This document shows positions 11,802 to 17,566 of a stretch of DNA of 32,000 nt, one piece after another. Each line of letters opens with the position of its first letter. Within the stretch, counting starts at the first letter, position 1. A model generated the notes under the pieces. That model was given only the letters and a program-made list of their open reading frames with translations. It was not told the origin of the DNA and ran no database searches. Both the position numbers and the translations under genes were made by a program. The stretch comes from an uncultured Parasphingopyxis sp. (lineage in GTDB: Bacteria; Pseudomonadota; Alphaproteobacteria; Sphingomonadales; Sphingomonadaceae): assembly GCF_937129435.1 (NCBI RefSeq), contig NZ_CAKZNF010000018.1, positions 24,020-56,019 on the forward strand. Reading direction: 5' to 3'.

Positions 11802-12256
11802 TTGACTCACGCAAAGACGCTAAGACGCAAAATCCGTATGATTGTTCACGATGCGCTTGATGCCTTCCTTGAAGGTGGCAGCGCCGAAATTCATCAAGAG
11901 ACCCAGGGGCAGGTCTAGAAGCCGCAGATAGGTCAGCACCTGCTTGCCATGAACCGCTTGCAGGCGTTCGACGGATTTGAGTTCGATCAGAAGCCGGTCT
12001 TCGACCAGAATATCAGCGCGAAACCCTTCCTGGATCGCCAGTCCCTTGAAATGGATCCCGACCGGCTTTTGCCGGTCGATTTTCAAACCACGTTCTTCCA
12101 GTTCGAAGGCCAACACCGCTTCATAGACCGATTCCAGCAGTCCCGGCCCCAATTCCTTGTGGATGTGAAACCCCGCATCGACCGCAATCCGCGCAAGCTC
12201 TTCGACAGAATGGCTCACGCTTATTCTTTGCGTCTTCGCGTCTTCGCGTGAGTCAA
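11802..12256 (-). mobile_element. 455-bp cassette: GxxExxY nuclease-fold gene bounded by 30-bp terminal inverted repeats, inserted between maoC-like and thiolase genes
   Basis: Left 11802-11831 is TTGACTCACGCAAAGACGCTAAGACGCAAA. Right 12227-12256 is TTTGCGTCTTCGCGTCTTCGCGTGAGTCAA (28/30 complementary). Each arm contains a tandem GCGAAGAC-like unit. G+C inside is visibly lower than in the flanks. Confidence 0.5.
11820..12218 (-). CDS. GxxExxY protein (PD-(D/E)XK nuclease superfamily)
   Basis: 132 aa, GTG start. ...HKELGPGLLESVYEAVLAFELEERGLKIDRQKPVGIHFKG...FRADILVEDRLLIELKSVERL...HGKQVLTYLRLLDLPLGLLMNFG carries the GxxExxY motif and the D...ExK core. Its stop codon lies inside the left inverted repeat. 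Confidence 0.85.
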   Translation of the reverse strand: MSHSVEELARIAVDAGFHIHKELGPGLLESVYEAVLAFELEERGLKIDRQKPVGIHFKGLAIQEGFRADILVEDRLLIELKSVERLQAVHGKQVLTYLRLLDLPLGLLMNFGAATFKEGIKRIVNNHTDFAS

Positions 12257-12260
12257 TTCC

Positions 12261-12719
12261 TCAAACGAAAAACTGCGAGATCCATTCGGCAATCAGGGCG
12301 GGCTTGTCCTCGCCCTCGATCTCGACGGAAAATTCGAGCGTCTGCTGATACTGGCCGGGGCGCTTTTCGGTGAGCTCGAGCAGCTTGAAATGGCCGCGCA
12401 CGCGCTTGCCGGATTTTACCGGCGCGAGGAAACGCGTTTTGTTGCCGCCATAGTTGACGCCCATCTTCACGCCTTCGGGACGCGGGCAATCGCTCTCCGC
12501 CATCATGCGCGGGAAGAGCGACAGCGTCAGAAAGCCGTGCGCGATCGTCTGGCCGAAGGGCGTCATCTTCGCGGCTTCGGGATTGACGTGGATGAACTGG
12601 TGATCGCCGGTTGCGTCGGCAAACTTGTCGATCATCTCCTGATCGACGGTGATCCATTCGGACGTGCCGAGCGTTTCGCCCACCTTGCCCATCATTTCGT
12701 CGATGCTGATCGTTGCCAT
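12261..12719 (-). CDS. MaoC-like (R)-specific enoyl-CoA hydratase / hot-dog dehydratase
   Basis: Start MATISIDEMMGKVGE at the ATG 12717-12719 preceded by GAGAGGAG. ...FADATGDHQFIHVNPEAAKMTPFGQTIAHGFLTLSL is the MaoC hydratase motif. The track start at 12749 lies inside the repeat element and is rejected. Confidence 0.85.
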   Translation of the reverse strand: MATISIDEMMGKVGETLGTSEWITVDQEMIDKFADATGDHQFIHVNPEAAKMTPFGQTIAHGFLTLSLFPRMMAESDCPRPEGVKMGVNYGGNKTRFLAPVKSGKRVRGHFKLLELTEKRPGQYQQTLEFSVEIEGEDKPALIAEWISQFFV

Positions 12720-12744
12720 CCCGTCGCTCCTCTCGTTTCGGATC

Positions 12745-12833
12745 GTCATGCTGAACTTGTTTCAGCATCCACCTTTCATTCCGCATGGTCCGTGCGATGG
12801 GAGAGGTGGACCCTGAAACAAGTTCAGGGTGAC
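12745..12833. repeat. Gene-less inverted doublet of hairpin family A (REPIN-like)
   Basis: GTCATGCTGAACTTGTTTCAGCATCCACCT (12745-12774) and AGGTGGACCCTGAAACAAGTTCAGGGTGAC (12804-12833), separated by about 30 nt. Each arm is itself an 8-bp stem with a 5-nt loop. It is the same hairpin that flanks the GIY-YIG gene at 15952 and 16379. Confidence 0.85.
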
Positions 12834-12891
12834 GGTGAAGCCTCACCTTATCGTTATGCGGCGTGTCCGCAAGGCGTTATAGGGCCGCGCC

Positions 12892-15800
12892 ATGGCTAGC
12901 ACGAAACACGACCCCGATTCCCTAACGTCCGCCGCCTGGCTCCACATGGAAGAGGTGCACCGCGCGCCCGAAAACGAGGTGCTGGCGCCGCTGATCGAGC
13001 GCGCCCGACTCGCGCCCGACGAACGCGAACGGATCGAGCACCGCGCACTGGGCCTGCTCGCCGAATTGCGCGAGGGGCAGCGGACGGGCTGGGTCAACCA
13101 GTTCCTCCAGGAATATCGCCTGAACACATCGGAGGGCGTCGCGCTCCTCAGTCTCGCCGAGGCGTTCCTGCGGGTGCCCGATGCCGACACCGCGGACAAG
13201 CTGATCGCCGACAAGATCGGCGAAGGAAACTGGCGCAGCCATGCCGGCAAATCGCATTCGGGGATGGTCAATTCGGCCACCTGGGGCCTCGTCATCGGTC
13301 GCGCGCTCGTGGGCGAGAAGACGACGGCAAACGCCCTGCGCCGCCTGATCAGCCGTACGGGCGAACCGTTCGTGCGGCAAGCGGTCGGCGCGGCGATGCG
13401 GCTGATGGGCGAGATCTTCGTCATGGGCCGGACGATCGACGAAGCACTGAAGCGCATGAAGCGGCCGGAAAACAAGGGCTTTACCGCGAGCTTCGACATG
13501 CTCGGCGAAGCAGCGCGGACCTTCCCCGATGCCGATCGCTATTTCGAAAGCTATATGCGCGCGATTCAAGCCGTCGGCGCCGCGCGGACCGAGGGGTCGA
13601 CCGAGGTCAACCATTCGATCTCGGTCAAACTGTCGGCGCTCCACCCGCGCTACGAGGTGGCGCAATGGGGCCGCTGCGTGCCCGAACTCACCGACCGGCT
13701 GGAAGCGCTGGCCGAGGCGGCTGCGAAGGCGCAGATCGGCCTGACCGTCGATGCCGAGGAATCGGAACGGCTCGAGATGAGCCTCGACATTATCGAGCAT
13801 GTCGCCGAGATGCCGAAGTTTGCCGGCTGGAACGGATTCGGCATGGCGATCCAGGCCTATGGCAAGCGCTGCCAGCGCACCATCGGCTGGGCCGAGGCGC
13901 TGGCCGAGCGCACGAACCGGTACATCCCCGTCCGTCTCGTCAAGGGCGCCTATTGGGACAGCGAGATCAAGCACGCGCAGGAAAAGGGGCTGCGGCACTA
14001 CCCCCTCTTCACGCGCAAGGTGAACACCGACACCTGCTATCTCGCCTGCGCGAAGGATATGCTCGAAGCCAAGATGATCCGCCCCGCCTTCGCCACGCAT
14101 AATGCGTTGACGGCGGCGACGATCATGGAATGGGCGCCCGACCCGAAAAGCTTCGAATTCCAGCGGCTGCACGGCATGGGCGAAGGGCTGTTCGAGGATC
14201 TCGTGCGGGAGCAGGGCTATCGCTGCCGCATCTATGCGCCGGTCGGCGGCCATCGCGACCTCCTCGCCTATCTCGTCCGCCGCCTGCTTGAGAACGGCGC
14301 CAATTCGAGCTTTGTCCACCAGCTTGCCGACGAGCATCTGAGCGATGCCGACCTGCTGCGCGATCCGGTGGAGCGCTGCGCGGAAGTGGGCGGGACGCGC
14401 CATCCGTCGATCCCGCTGCCCGAAGACCTGTTCATGCCGCAAAGGAAGAACAGCGAGGGGCTGGACCTCGACGACTGGCGCGTGCTCAACCGCGTGACCG
14501 AGGGCATTGTCGAGCGCGGCGATATCGGCGATCCGCCGGCCCAGCCAAAGGACGTGAATGCGTTGATCGAGAAGGCCGGCAAGGGCTATGCCAAATGGTC
14601 GCTGCTCCCGGTCGAAGAGCGCGCTGCACGGATTGCCCGGCTGGGCGAGTTGCTCGAGGAACATCGCGGCGAGCTGATGGCGCTCGCGGTGCACGAAGCC
14701 AACAAGACGATCCCCGATGCGCTGGCCGAGATACGCGAGGCGATCGACTTCTGCCGCTATTACGCAGCCGAAGCGCGCGAGAAATTGCAGCCGCTCGAAA
14801 TGCCCGGCCCGACGGGTGAGACCAATGTCCTGCGGATGGAGGGCAAGGGCGTGTGGTGCTGCATCTCGCCCTGGAACTTCCCGCTCGCCATTTTCACCGG
14901 GCAGGTGGCCGCCGCGCTCGTGACCGGCAATGCAGTGATCGCAAAGCCGGCCCCGCAGACGCCCCGCATCGCGGCGGCCGCCGTTCGGCTCGCGCATGTC
15001 GCCGGGATCCCGGAGGATGCGCTGCTGCTCGCCCCCGGCGGACCGAAAATCGGCGCGGCGCTGACCGGCGACCCGCGCATTGCCGGCGTCGCCTTTACCG
15101 GCTCGACCGGCACGGCCAAGGCCATCGCCAAGTCGCTGCTCGAGGACGACGACCGGCCGATCGTCCCGCTGATCGCCGAGACGGGCGGCATCAACGCGAT
15201 GATCGTCGATTCCACGGCGCTGCCCGAACAGGTCGTCGCCGATGCCGTCGCCTCGGCTTTCGGTTCGGCCGGGCAACGCTGTTCGGCGCTTCGTCTCCTG
15301 CTGATCCAGAAGGATGTCGCCGAAAAGATGATCGAGATGCTGAAAGGCGCGATGGCGACGCTGCAGGTCGGACAACCGGAAAACCCGGCGAGCGATGTCG
15401 GACCGGTCATCGACCAGGCGTCCTATGACAAGCTGATGAGCTATCGCGAGACGATGGCCGACCGGATTCTTGCGACCTGCGATGTGCCCGAACAAGGGCT
15501 ATATGTGCCGCCGACACTGATCCGGCTCGACAGTGCCGAGGACCTCACCGCCGAATGGTTCGGGCCGATCCTGCATGTCGCGACATGGAAATCGGGCAAG
15601 CTTGAACAGACGGTCGCGCGGATCAACGCCAAGGGCTTCGGCCTCACCATGGGCCTGCACAGCCGCATCGCGCGGGCCGGCGAGATCGTCGAAATGCATG
15701 CCCGCGTCGGCAATCTCTACGTCAACCGCACGATGACCGGCGCCGTCGTCGGCTCGCAGCCCTTTGGCGGCGAAGGCCTGTCGGGCACCGGCCCCAAGGC

Positions 15801-15918
15801 CGGCGGCCCGCACTACCTACCCCGCTTCTGCGCCGAACGGGTGACGACGATCGACACGACGAGTGCCGGCGGCAATGCGACGCTGCTGAGCCTGGAGGAA
15901 GCGGGGATGGGGATTTGA
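12892..15918 (+). CDS. putA: Bifunctional proline dehydrogenase / L-glutamate gamma-semialdehyde dehydrogenase PutA (form without an N-terminal DNA-binding domain)
   Basis: 1008 aa. PRODH barrel region (...SVKLSALHPRYE...VRLVKGAYWDSEIK...) followed by an ALDH domain with ETGGINAMIVDSTALPEQ and the catalytic Cys in GQRCSALR. The start could alternatively be the Met at 12946. Confidence 0.9.
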   Translation: MASTKHDPDSLTSAAWLHMEEVHRAPENEVLAPLIERARLAPDERERIEHRALGLLAELREGQRTGWVNQFLQEYRLNTSEGVALLSLAEAFLRVPDADTADKLIADKIGEGNWRSHAGKSHSGMVNSATWGLVIGRALVGEKTTANALRRLISRTGEPFVRQAVGAAMRLMGEIFVMGRTIDEALKRMKRPENKGFTASFDMLGEAARTFPDADRYFESYMRAIQAVGAARTEGSTEVNHSISVKLSALHPRYEVAQWGRCVPELTDRLEALAEAAAKAQIGLTVDAEESERLEMSLDIIEHVAEMPKFAGWNGFGMAIQAYGKRCQRTIGWAEALAERTNRYIPVRLVKGAYWDSEIKHAQEKGLRHYPLFTRKVNTDTCYLACAKDMLEAKMIRPAFATHNALTAATIMEWAPDPKSFEFQRLHGMGEGLFEDLVREQGYRCRIYAPVGGHRDLLAYLVRRLLENGANSSFVHQLADEHLSDADLLRDPVERCAEVGGTRHPSIPLPEDLFMPQRKNSEGLDLDDWRVLNRVTEGIVERGDIGDPPAQPKDVNALIEKAGKGYAKWSLLPVEERAARIARLGELLEEHRGELMALAVHEANKTIPDALAEIREAIDFCRYYAAEAREKLQPLEMPGPTGETNVLRMEGKGVWCCISPWNFPLAIFTGQVAAALVTGNAVIAKPAPQTPRIAAAAVRLAHVAGIPEDALLLAPGGPKIGAALTGDPRIAGVAFTGSTGTAKAIAKSLLEDDDRPIVPLIAETGGINAMIVDSTALPEQVVADAVASAFGSAGQRCSALRLLLIQKDVAEKMIEMLKGAMATLQVGQPENPASDVGPVIDQASYDKLMSYRETMADRILATCDVPEQGLYVPPTLIRLDSAEDLTAEWFGPILHVATWKSGKLEQTVARINAKGFGLTMGLHSRIARAGEIVEMHARVGNLYVNRTMTGAVVGSQPFGGEGLSGTGPKAGGPHYLPRFCAERVTTIDTTSAGGNATLLSLEEAGMGI

Positions 15919-15951
15919 CACGCGGATAGGTGACACAGCACGGCATTATCT

Positions 15952-16379
15952 GTCATGCTGAACTTGTTTCAGCATCCATATGCCTCATCCTATATGGCAG
16001 CGTGTGACCGAACCCAAACAGCCCTGCGTCTACATCCTCGCCAAGCGGAAACACGGCGCGCTCTACATCGGCGTAACGTCAAATCTGACAAAGCGGCTGT
16101 ATGAACATCGCACCGGAGCAGTACCCGGTCATGCGAAACGGCATTCCATCAAATGCCTCGTCCATTTCGAGCAGTTCGAAGATATGCCCAGCGCGATCGC
16201 CCGCGAGAAGCAGCTGAAAAACTGGCATCGCGACTGGAAATGCAACCTTATCGAACGCGACAATCCCGATTGGCACGACATTGCGGCGGATTGGCGGTTC
16301 GATCCGGTTTGAGGTGCGGCCGCCGTTCCATAGCCATGAGCGGTGAGGCATATGGATGCTGAAACAAGTTCAGCATGAC
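15952..16379 (+). mobile_element. 428-bp cassette: GIY-YIG nuclease gene bounded by perfect 33-bp inverted repeats of hairpin family A
   Basis: 15952-15984 GTCATGCTGAACTTGTTTCAGCATCCATATGCC is the exact reverse complement of 16347-16379. Nothing lies between the arms except the 110-aa ORF. G+C is lower than in the flanks. It sits in the convergent putA/mscS intergenic region. Confidence 0.5.
15980..16312 (+). CDS. GIY-YIG nuclease family protein (UPF0213/YhbQ-like)
   Basis: 110 aa. PCVYILAKRKHGALYIGVTSNLTKRLYEHR...AREKQLKNWHRDWK contains the GIY-YIG, Arg and Glu core motifs. The ATG lies inside the left repeat (CATATG). Confidence 0.85.
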   Translation: MPHPIWQRVTEPKQPCVYILAKRKHGALYIGVTSNLTKRLYEHRTGAVPGHAKRHSIKCLVHFEQFEDMPSAIAREKQLKNWHRDWKCNLIERDNPDWHDIAADWRFDPV

Positions 16380-16390
16380 GGCCTTCATAG

Positions 16391-17566
16391 CTAACTCCCT
16401 GTCACCACCGGGTTCGCGCCTTCGCCATCTCCGCTGGGATAGGGCATGATCGCCTCTCCGCTGGGCGCGGCCGTGAAGGTGGTCTGCGTCGGATAGGCGA
16501 ATTCGAGGCCCTCTTCGGAGAAGCGGCGGAAGATGGCGATGCCGACCTCGTGCCGGGCCTTGATGAAATCGGCATAATCGGCGCTCGGGACGTCGAACAG
16601 CACCTCATAGTCGAGGCTCGACGCACCGAAGCCGGTGAAGCCCGCGCGGGCCAGCGTGTTGCCGAGCTTCTCCACCTCCTCCTGCAGGAATTCGGGAATG
16701 CGCGCGGCGAGATCGGGCGGGGTCTGGTAGATCACGCCGACGTTGAAGATACCGCGCCGCCGCTCGAGCTGGGTGTTGTTGGAGATTTCCTTCGACAGCA
16801 ACAGCGAATTGGAGATGATCTTCTCCTCGCCGTTCACCGACCGGATCCGCGTTGTCTTCAGCCCGATCTTTTCGACCGTGCCGAAGGTGTTGTCGTAATG
16901 AATGCTGTCGCCCTTCTTGAAGGGCTTGTCGAAGATGATCGACAGCGCCGCAAACAGTTCCTCGAAGATGCCCTGCGCAGCCAAACCGATGGCGATGCCG
17001 CCGACGCCGAGGCCCGCGACAAGACCCGTCACATCGACGCCGAGATTGTCGAGCACGACAATCAGGGCCACGGCAAACACCGCGACGGTCACCGAAATGC
17101 GGATCAGCGTCATCGCCGTGCCCAGCGTTTCGGCGTGGTCCTCGTCGGTCTCGGCCCGGATCAGGATGAAACCGAGGATAATCTCGCGTACCCAGATCGC
17201 GACCTGCAGCACGGTGGTGACGGTGAACAGGAAGGTGACGACGCCATCGAGCCGTTCCGGGCTTTCGGCAAAGGTCGTCACGATCTTCGCCGAGACCATC
17301 AGCATGAACCAGTGCTTGGTCTTCCAGAGCGCTTGACCGACGACACTGGACAATGTCGTTTCGTTCGGGTTGCGATCTCGCAGCCGCCGGCCGAAGTGCC
17401 GCATCATTTCCAATATCAGATAGACGACAAGCCCGCCTGCGGCGGCGATCAGAAGCTCGACATAATGGTTCGAGACCCATTCCGAGGTGCTCGTCCAGAA
17501 ATCGGCCAGCGCATCGCTGCTCGGCATCGATATGGCCGCGTCGCCGGCTGTATTCGTCGTCGTCAT
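16391..17566 (-). CDS. Mechanosensitive ion channel family protein (MscS-like)
   Basis: 391 aa. Several N-terminal TM helices, then the MscS beta-domain signature ...IIFDKPFKKGDSIHYDNTFGTVEKIGLKTTRIRSVNGEEKIISNSLLL. Only 10 nt separate it from the topoisomerase IB gene. Confidence 0.9.
   Translation of the reverse strand: MTTTNTAGDAAISMPSSDALADFWTSTSEWVSNHYVELLIAAAGGLVVYLILEMMRHFGRRLRDRNPNETTLSSVVGQALWKTKHWFMLMVSAKIVTTFAESPERLDGVVTFLFTVTTVLQVAIWVREIILGFILIRAETDEDHAETLGTAMTLIRISVTVAVFAVALIVVLDNLGVDVTGLVAGLGVGGIAIGLAAQGIFEELFAALSIIFDKPFKKGDSIHYDNTFGTVEKIGLKTTRIRSVNGEEKIISNSLLLSKEISNNTQLERRRGIFNVGVIYQTPPDLAARIPEFLQEEVEKLGNTLARAGFTGFGASSLDYEVLFDVPSADYADFIKARHEVGIAIFRRFSEEGLEFAYPTQTTFTAAPSGEAIMPYPSGDGEGANPVVTGS

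Follow-up and report, generated by a model that had tools for sequence, protein, structure and literature searches.

A GIY-YIG nuclease gene framed by inverted CTGAAC-type hairpins in Parasphingopyxis is very probably an Ssn cassette

A 32,000-nucleotide stretch of DNA from an uncultured Parasphingopyxis sp. (contig NZ_CAKZNF010000018.1, positions 24,020 to 56,019; the whole stretch is hereafter referred to as the window) contains a small GIY-YIG nuclease gene bracketed by inverted hairpin repeats. Our analysis indicates that this locus is very probably an Ssn cassette, consisting of a gene for an Ssn-family GIY-YIG nuclease and two cognate Ssn-related hairpins, which are CGTC-tagged repetitive extragenic palindromic (REP) sequences. 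The original prediction, made from the sequence by itself, held that no such system had been described. This kind of system has, however, already been published, as the NTS-ssnA-NTS arrangement of Neisseria and its SRM-Ssn relatives, by authors who likened it to insertion sequences (ISs), IS200/IS605 elements, REP-associated tyrosine transposases (RAYTs) and REPs and raised the hypothesis of mobilisation (Chenal et al., Nat Commun 2025; PMC11893778). The dialect of hairpin found in the window, with a CTGAAC stem, is not captured by the SRM pattern published there.

Ssn proteins are GIY-YIG nucleases with a single domain, and inverted hairpin repeats, termed NTS or SRM (Ssn-related motif), lie on either side of their genes (Chenal et al., 2025; PMC11893778). 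The repeat known as NTS in Neisseria, CGTCATTCCCGCGMAVGCGGGAATCYRG, overlaps the dRS3 and CGTC-1 repeats and is linked across phyla to ssnA, a 94-amino-acid (aa) single-domain GIY-YIG gene, most homologues of which are flanked by SRM hairpins; by the published figure, 42% of ssn genes carry the motif on both sides, and Sphingomonas is among the SRM-rich taxa. Four purified Ssn homologues bound the hairpin only as single-stranded DNA (ssDNA) and cut it a few nucleotides upstream, while the characterised Ssn were active neither on double-stranded DNA (dsDNA) nor on RNA. In SsnA of N. meningitidis the substitutions Y6A, Y17A and E64A abolish cleavage; the C directly behind the palindrome contributes most to binding, and the three positions in front of the palindrome contribute most to cleavage. 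The only function shown for the family is the modulation of natural transformation in N. meningitidis (all PMC11893778). CGTC-tagged REPs were described earlier, as repeats for which a dedicated transposase was apparently lacking (Di Nocera, De Gregorio and Rocco, 2013; PMC3733652). They have an unpaired CGTC, TGTC or CCTC head, an 8-9-bp stem starting from A-T then T-A, a 4-5-nt loop and a CCA tail, and are found mainly in Alphaproteobacteria, mostly as inverted dimers, downstream of genes or between convergent open reading frames (ORFs) (PMC3733652).

The cassette in the window occupies the gap between two convergent genes, putA (12892-15918, + strand) and mscS (16391-17566, - strand). As the original prediction had stated, its arms at 15952-15984 and 16347-16379 are exact reverse complements of each other and each of them is palindromic, both containing ATGCTGAA-CTTGT-TTCAGCAT, an 8-bp stem with a 5-nt loop. 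The left hairpin (15951-15978, + strand), recognised by its sequence, its ssDNA fold and its match to a consensus of 224 hairpins given below, is made up of the head TGTC (15951-15954), the stem strand ATGCTGAA (15955-15962), the loop CTTGT (15963-15967), the stem strand TTCAGCAT (15968-15975) and the tail CCA (15976-15978). The right hairpin (16353-16380, - strand) is the reverse complement of the left, with its head, CGTC, at 16377-16380 on the minus strand. In each arm the unpaired head lies on the outer side and the CCA tail on the inner side, and the heads of both hairpins are directed away from the ssn gene. The inverted repeat reaches beyond the hairpins, to 47 nt at 89% complementarity, with a left arm at 15952-15998 that adds an inner extension, CCATATGCCTCA..., to the hairpin, and a right arm at 16333-16379. 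A CGTC or TGTC head, a stem of 8 bp that starts with AT, a 5-nt loop and a CCA tail together conform to the definition of CGTC-tagged REPs, with which the window hairpins also appear to share the arrangement as inverted dimers and the placement between convergent genes. When folded as ssDNA, the two arms yield -6.7 and -9.1 kcal/mol (z about -3). The cassette also stands out in base composition: its G+C content is 0.549, compared with 0.662 for putA, 0.615 for mscS and 0.647 for the window, so that both the low G+C and the convergent setting that had been claimed for it are borne out. An Rfam search of 12000-17000 (E <= 1) gave no match, and a promoter and terminator scan detected no sigma-70-like promoter for ssn and found the hairpins to be without T-runs.

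A gene-less inverted doublet of the same hairpin family is located at 12744-12834, in the divergent intergenic region between MaoC and putA, 3 kb upstream of the cassette. Its left unit (12744-12771, + strand) has the ATGCTGAA stem and its right unit (12807-12834, - strand) has the ACCCTGAA stem, a compensated variant of the form ACCCTGAA...TTCAGGGT. The doublet that had been predicted at 12745-12833 is thus real, but its right arm, with the ACCCTGAA/TTCAGGGT stem, is not the identical hairpin. As ssDNA the doublet folds into one long hairpin (-33.3 kcal/mol, z -8.7). Altogether, the 15-nt hairpin core occurs four times in the 32-kb window, twice in the cassette and twice in the doublet, against 0.02 expected from shuffles, and a 21-mer of the hairpin occurs three times, against 0.00 expected.

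Between the cassette arms a single ORF has a family match; it runs from 15980 to 16312 (+ strand) and encodes a protein of 110 aa with the GIY-YIG domain (Pfam PF01541, E 6.6e-14). The ORF and the position of its ATG (15980-15982) within the left arm are as originally predicted. The start is more likely to be another one, however: alignment to 28 canonical cassettes places the usual start at an in-frame GTG at 16004, so that the protein probably has 102 rather than 110 residues. PF01541, spanning residues 15-89, is its sole significant Pfam domain, which makes it a single-domain protein of fewer than 150 aa, and a second ssn copy was not found in the window. Its catalytic residues are Y18, Y29 and E76. 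In an alignment of 31 homologues the first and last of these do not vary, and Y29 reaches a conservation of 90% or more; R39, H43 and N95 are also conserved in the family. An AlphaFold2 (AF2) model (pLDDT 79.7) has the GIY-YIG beta-beta-alpha-alpha-beta-alpha core followed by two C-terminal helices, and a fold search of the PDB with this model returned GIY-YIG domains as all of its top 17 matches (UPF0213, SLX1 and UvrC), with 1zg2, 6seh and 1yd6 as the nearest solved structures. A sequence search of the PDB reached UPF0213 chains only marginally (1ywl, E 0.0058; 1zg2, E 0.097). There is no Y1_Tnp match to the protein; the enzyme is a GIY-YIG nuclease. PADLOC gave only weak, sub-significant matches to the GIY-YIG domain, and ssn is therefore not a known component of a defence system.

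Placement of this protein in the Ssn family rests on its homology to SsnA. A tblastn search of the 7.3-Gb PLSDB database with the window protein retrieved the N. gonorrhoeae record NZ_CP119140.1 (49.5% identity, E 1e-22, 83% of the query), in which the matching ORF has 94 aa with Y6, Y17 and E64 and lies amid NTS repeats. Taking this gonococcal orthologue as the SsnA reference in place of the N. meningitidis protein, pairwise BLASTP gave a gapless alignment with 45/91 identical residues (49%, E 4e-33), in which Y6, Y17 and E64 align with Y18, Y29 and E76 of the window protein at a constant offset of 12. These values lie within the published bounds for an Ssn homologue, which are E < 1e-10 and at least 75% coverage against Neisseria SsnA (PMC11893778). 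Since the similarity to UPF0213, SLX1 and UvrC is marginal compared with 49% identity to SsnA, we regard the protein as an Ssn and not as a UPF0213 protein. The window protein shares 55% identity with a homologue at another locus (L070) that has the literal Neisseria NTS consensus in its flanks. When an NTS-flanked homologue served as the query of a protein search, the top matches were from Patescibacteria and none from Neisseria. Within 500 bp on either side of the window ssn lies a hairpin built like an SRM: it has a GTC head, then the palindrome, and a C directly behind the stem. The window locus and the published Ssn loci are hence alike in having a single-domain GIY-YIG protein of ~100 aa with the Y/Y/E residues in register, a gene between inverted (C/T)GTC-headed hairpins, a C after the stem and a hairpin that is also dispersed in the genome as doublets. 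In the course of this search, NZ_CP119140.1 (L089) and NZ_CP119142.1, both of which contain ssnA and NTS repeats, were seen to be 2.17-Mb N. gonorrhoeae records filed in PLSDB as plasmids; they are apparently chromosomes, making this a database artefact.

The association of gene and hairpin extends well beyond the window. A homologue scan over one genome per species, based on the 31-sequence alignment, gave at least 591 matches, and the best 80 of these, from ~79 genomes that are almost all Sphingomonadales, were used as a locus set. An oriented CTGAAC hairpin within 200 bp of the ssn homologue was found upstream in 69/80 loci, downstream in 65/80 and on both sides in 62/80, whereas an upstream hairpin would be expected by chance in ~0.5 of the 80 loci, given a density of 0.057 per kb in the far flanks. 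In total, ~72 kb around the genes held 193 hairpins, compared with 31 in 540 kb of far flank, a ~47-fold enrichment. The association between gene and hairpin is not due to chance. The topology that had been proposed from the window, with a nuclease gene lying between inverted copies of a dispersed hairpin, is therefore general to the 62 loci with hairpins on both sides, and the opposite outcome, in which homologues elsewhere would be without hairpins, was not observed. The far-flank density would correspond to roughly 200 hairpins per 3.5 Mb, and 18 of the 31 far-flank hairpins are in inverted doublets. In 25 loci from different genera, the hairpin cores are exactly 374 bp apart; the window cassette measures 401 bp against this canonical 374 bp, owing to insertions of 4 nt and 23 nt. 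Canonical cassettes (for example L007, 3941-4340) leave ~27-30 nt between the tail of the left hairpin and the start codon, and in many of them translation ends at a TGA that belongs to the right hairpin (C-TGA-AAC); the canonical 374-bp cassette is too tight for an internal promoter.

The 224 hairpins from these loci have the consensus CGTCA[T/C][C/G]CTGAACT[T/C]GTTTCAG..TCCA, in which the head positions are 93-100% conserved and the CGTCA head and TCCA tail together 83-100%. The pairs at the base of the stem covary, with T-A/C-G and G-C/C-G in matching proportions. Loci without a CTGAAC hairpin have other CGTC-headed hairpins in the same inverted arrangement, the CCCGGA and GCCGGC types among them, and two of the loci (L070 and L075) have a hairpin of the CATTCCCGCG...CGCGGGAATC type. 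In a neighbour-joining tree, which carries no support values, the proteins of the non-CTGAAC loci fall outside a large CTGAAC clade. The covariation of hairpin and protein that the original prediction had asked about is thus seen at a suggestive level, in that hairpin type appears to track protein clade. We also observed a strong depletion of G in the 8 nt directly 5' of the CGTC head of the 224 hairpins: G accounts for 4-13%, the bases are mostly C/T/A, and the genomes have >60% G+C. This stretch is the region of reported Ssn cutting and could reflect a cleavage-site preference; the right hairpin of the window is off this trend. In addition, one contig in the locus set (L010), assigned to Maricaulis salignorans as part of a metagenome-assembled genome (MAG), shows 93-95% identity along 7.5 kb with a contig of a Sphingorhabdus MAG (L008). 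It is probably mis-binned, which calls for caution about the seeming occurrence of this ssn clade beyond Sphingomonadales.

Several observations weigh against assignment of the locus to the Ssn family, or against the transfer of Ssn biochemistry to it. The published SRM pattern, HGTCWYN(0-2)YYVSBRHN(0-5)WNVSBRGN(0-2)RNCYNB, has 0 matches in the window, and among the 80 related loci it matches any hairpin in only 6 and hairpins on both sides in 1. The CTGAAC stem breaks the pattern at its V/S positions, while test sequences of NTS and of the CCCGGA type match it. The stem itself, CTGAAC/GTTCAG, differs from the published stems, which are of the CCCGCG or CCCGGA types, and the layout differs as well: the window gene sits inside one doublet with the heads pointing outward, whereas in N. 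gonorrhoeae the gene has a doublet on either side and the heads closest to it face inward. The Ssn subfamily, cd10448 (GIY-YIG_unchar_3) in CDD, is not distinguished by the Pfam and NCBIfam models. In N. meningitidis, changing the sequence of the palindrome while keeping its structure led to loss of activity (PMC11893778), so recognition of CTGAAC must be assumed to have co-evolved with the protein; activity on CTGAAC-type hairpins is deduced entirely from homologues. Lastly, the role in transformation was shown in Neisseria and may not carry over to Parasphingopyxis. We read the failure of the SRM pattern as a limit of a search heuristic that was built from 29 genomes and not as exclusion from the Ssn family, and consider an Ssn cassette to be very probable despite these points.

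By homology with SsnA, the window Ssn (~100 aa) would recognise the folded hairpin only in single-stranded DNA, through its conserved head (GTC), the sequence of its stem and the C that comes next, and would then cut the strand by hydrolysis a few nucleotides 5' of the head. The window hairpin has kept the positions on which SsnA depends, three nucleotides in front of the palindrome and one C behind it, and the predicted ssDNA substrate carries TGTCATGCTGAACTTGTTTCAGCATCCA. Because the heads of the cassette point outward, cutting is predicted immediately beyond either end of the unit and on a different strand at each: directly left of 15951 it would affect the top strand, and directly right of 16380 the bottom strand. 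The same geometry would apply at the doublet (12744-12834) and at other dispersed copies. We infer the ssDNA-specific cleavage, the specificity for the CTGAAC dialect and the cut positions from the characterised homologues. The original prediction had suggested that the protein may be the cognate enzyme for cleavage and mobilisation, or for maintenance, of the hairpin family; cleavage is supported by the published biochemistry of the homologue SsnA (PMC11893778), whereas mobilisation can be put forward only tentatively. The most likely role of Ssn is to process hairpin-bearing ssDNA produced when DNA is taken up, transferred by conjugation, replicated or repaired; recombination near the repeats would be shaped as a result.

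Comparison of the putA-mscS gap with those of relatives revealed that the cassette is polymorphic. In two Parasphingopyxis MAGs (MscS 67% identical) and in P. marina, the stop codons of putA and mscS are 3-6 bp apart, where the window has an intergenic segment of 472 bp (15919-16390); this segment is therefore an insertion relative to these three genomes. In P. algicola, a beta-lactamase gene is found at the same site. The comparison of orthologous gaps for empty sites that the original prediction had called for thus yields three empty relatives and establishes presence/absence polymorphism. In the two MAGs with the empty site, the ssn gene most similar to that of the window (78% identity) is found elsewhere, with hairpin doublets on both sides of it. 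Hairpin doublets are polymorphic too: the one at 12744-12834 is missing from the syntenic region of all four relatives (L085-L088), and a doublet in Sphingomonas desiccabilis (L019, 5975-6094) is missing from an 87-89% identical region of Sphingomonas sp. PL-96 (L033, 5987-5998). The PL-96 site holds a G+C-rich palindrome (CTCCCCGC TCGC GGGGAG) that resembles a terminator stem. The same two MAGs, which lack both the cassette and the doublet of the window, have in the MaoC-thiolase gap a doublet of a different, NTS-like dialect, CGTCATCCCGGCGAAAGCCGGGATC (L085, 9855-9943; L086, 4794-4882), from which it follows that there is more than one hairpin dialect in Parasphingopyxis.

The genomic contexts of the 80 loci are diverse, with 98 clusters among 153 flanking proteins and none shared with the window. 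The same neighbour gene does recur in 14 loci from several genera (L005, L007, L008, L011, L022, L024, L025, L030, L041, L042, L044, L051, L059 and L060), upstream of the ssn cassette in 13 of the 14 and downstream in L005. From the sequence motifs of its L007 copy this gene reads as ruvB, and the recurrence points to vertical inheritance of long standing or else to a favoured site beside a recombination gene. Genomes have 1-2 ssn copies; in the one MAG with two, the copies share 76% nucleotide identity. Neither a target-site duplication nor a clean boundary was found in comparisons of filled with empty sites (the window with L085/L088, L019 with L033 and L008 with L010), in which the intergenic DNA is too diverged for boundaries to be defined at the base level. 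The multiple near-identical copies and the defined ends, with a target-site duplication or a defined target, of an autonomous insertion sequence are not seen here; the window has one copy. Taken together, ssn looks like a RAYT-style gene that is mostly vertically inherited and occasionally relocates.

These findings bear on how the cassette and its hairpins may spread. One proposal, which is compatible with an Ssn cassette since it adds a function to it, is that the cassette represents a mobile element or the descendant of one, with Ssn disseminating the hairpin doublets in a GIY-YIG version of the RAYT/REPIN partnership; we consider this possible but clearly on the unlikely side. The locus is built like an IS or REPtron, and the exact 374-bp unit persists in different genera despite protein identities of only 55-60%. 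The diversity of flanks, the empty putA-mscS site in three Parasphingopyxis relatives, two of which hold the closest homologue at a different locus, and the absence of the window doublet and the S. desiccabilis doublet from relatives all fit such movement, as does the lack of a transposase for CGTC REPs in 2013 (PMC3733652), to which the present locus and that of Chenal et al. (2025) add an associated gene, the GIY-YIG ssn; the same hypothesis was raised in the latter study (PMC11893778). Our literature search for later work on Ssn mobilisation found none. The resemblance to REPIN/RAYT systems lies in a layout in which a low-copy nuclease gene is bracketed by inverted hairpins of a family dispersed as doublets, in the predicted recognition of an ssDNA hairpin with a short unpaired 5' tag and in the apparent covariation of tag and hairpin with the protein. 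The window enzyme is, however, a hydrolytic GIY-YIG nuclease and not a Y1 HUH transposase, and its tag is CGTC/TGTC and not GTAG. IS200/IS605 elements are likewise small, with subterminal hairpins that TnpA recognises as ssDNA and with cleavage offset from the hairpin, but both of their hairpins are on the same strand and they move as an ssDNA circle, whereas the window hairpins are on opposite strands, and the fold and chemistry of TnpA are unlike those of the window Ssn. To our knowledge GIY-YIG enzymes are hydrolytic, and we know of no strand-transfer or covalent-intermediate chemistry among them; insertion would therefore need host functions. The proposal is further weakened by the want of a target-site duplication or definable clean boundary, by low copy number, paralogues only 76% identical and no sign of recent transposition bursts, by a recurrent context next to the apparent ruvB in 14 loci that suggests long vertical inheritance, and by a demonstrated function in Neisseria that is restriction of transforming ssDNA and not mobilisation. 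A specific form of it, in which Ssn is the missing partner of CGTC REPs and nicks beside hairpins while host repair or replication copies the doublets and the 374-bp cassette to new intergenic sites, may be entertained with similar reserve.

Two further explanations can be set aside. In the first, a selfish GIY-YIG gene would act as a homing endonuclease, cutting empty doublets and being copied into their spacer by double-strand-break repair. GIY-YIG homing endonucleases exist, the gene sits exactly at the spacer position of a doublet, and NCBIfam gives a weak match of the window protein to a group I intron endonuclease model (E 0.007). We nonetheless rejected this explanation as very improbable, as the protein has no DNA-binding domain beyond its ~100-aa catalytic core, characterised Ssn relatives do not cut dsDNA, and empty doublets persist beside the gene and across relatives with only 1-2 gene copies per genome. 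In the other, a housekeeping protein of the UPF0213/YhbQ type would lie by coincidence beside REP hairpins whose function between convergent genes is termination or mRNA stabilisation. CGTC REPs are indeed mostly downstream of genes and between convergent ORFs, and the nearest solved structures are those of UPF0213, SLX1 and UvrC. UPF0213/YhbQ (cd10456) and SLX1 share the GIY-YIG core fold with the window protein, but their sequence similarity to it is marginal (E 0.006-0.1 for UPF0213, against 49% identity to SsnA) and they have no association with hairpin repeats; SLX1 in addition has an extra RING/zinc domain and a partner, SLX4. The ~47-fold hairpin density at the gene, with fixed orientation and spacing, the absence of the whole segment from the same convergent gap in relatives and the lack of a terminator-like T-run after the hairpins are hard to reconcile with coincidence, and this explanation was rejected as extremely improbable.

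The window contains a second small nuclease gene between inverted repeats, a PDDEXK_3 cassette at 11802-12256. Its ORF (11823-12218, - strand; 132 aa; PF13366, E 1.5e-38; TIGR04256, GxxExxY) belongs to a family annotated as of unknown function, and is bracketed by a 30-nt inverted repeat (11802-11831 and 12227-12256) that is 93% complementary, with a G+C content of 54%. This cassette is missing from the thiolase-MaoC gap of three relatives (L085, L086 and L088), so that the same gap holds different inserts, the PDDEXK_3 cassette in the window and the NTS-like doublet in L085 and L086. Among 80 metagenomic homologues of the gene (L090-L169), 68 of which were testable, an inverted repeat surrounds the gene in 58/68, with arms that have in common CTCAC followed by 2-3 tandem heptads of the GCGAAGN type (for example, GCGAAGA/GCGAAGG). 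A literature search on inverted-repeat bracketing of PDDEXK_3 genes found nothing.

The dominant Ssn-associated hairpin of Sphingomonadales, with its CTGAAC stem, escapes the published SRM pattern, and for this reason the published figure of 42% of ssn genes with the motif on both sides is probably an underestimate. A whole specificity class of potential ssDNA-cutting tools is likewise unlisted by the pattern. Whether Ssn spreads CGTC REPs is a question that dates from 2013 and was raised again in 2025, and an empty site together with a relocated copy in congeners is comparative evidence suited to testing it; with its uniform unit and its insertion polymorphisms between congeners, the CTGAAC dialect offers a good test bed. 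If Ssn does prove to be the partner of these repeats, it would represent a second, mechanistically independent origin of the REPIN-type partnership between repeat and enzyme.

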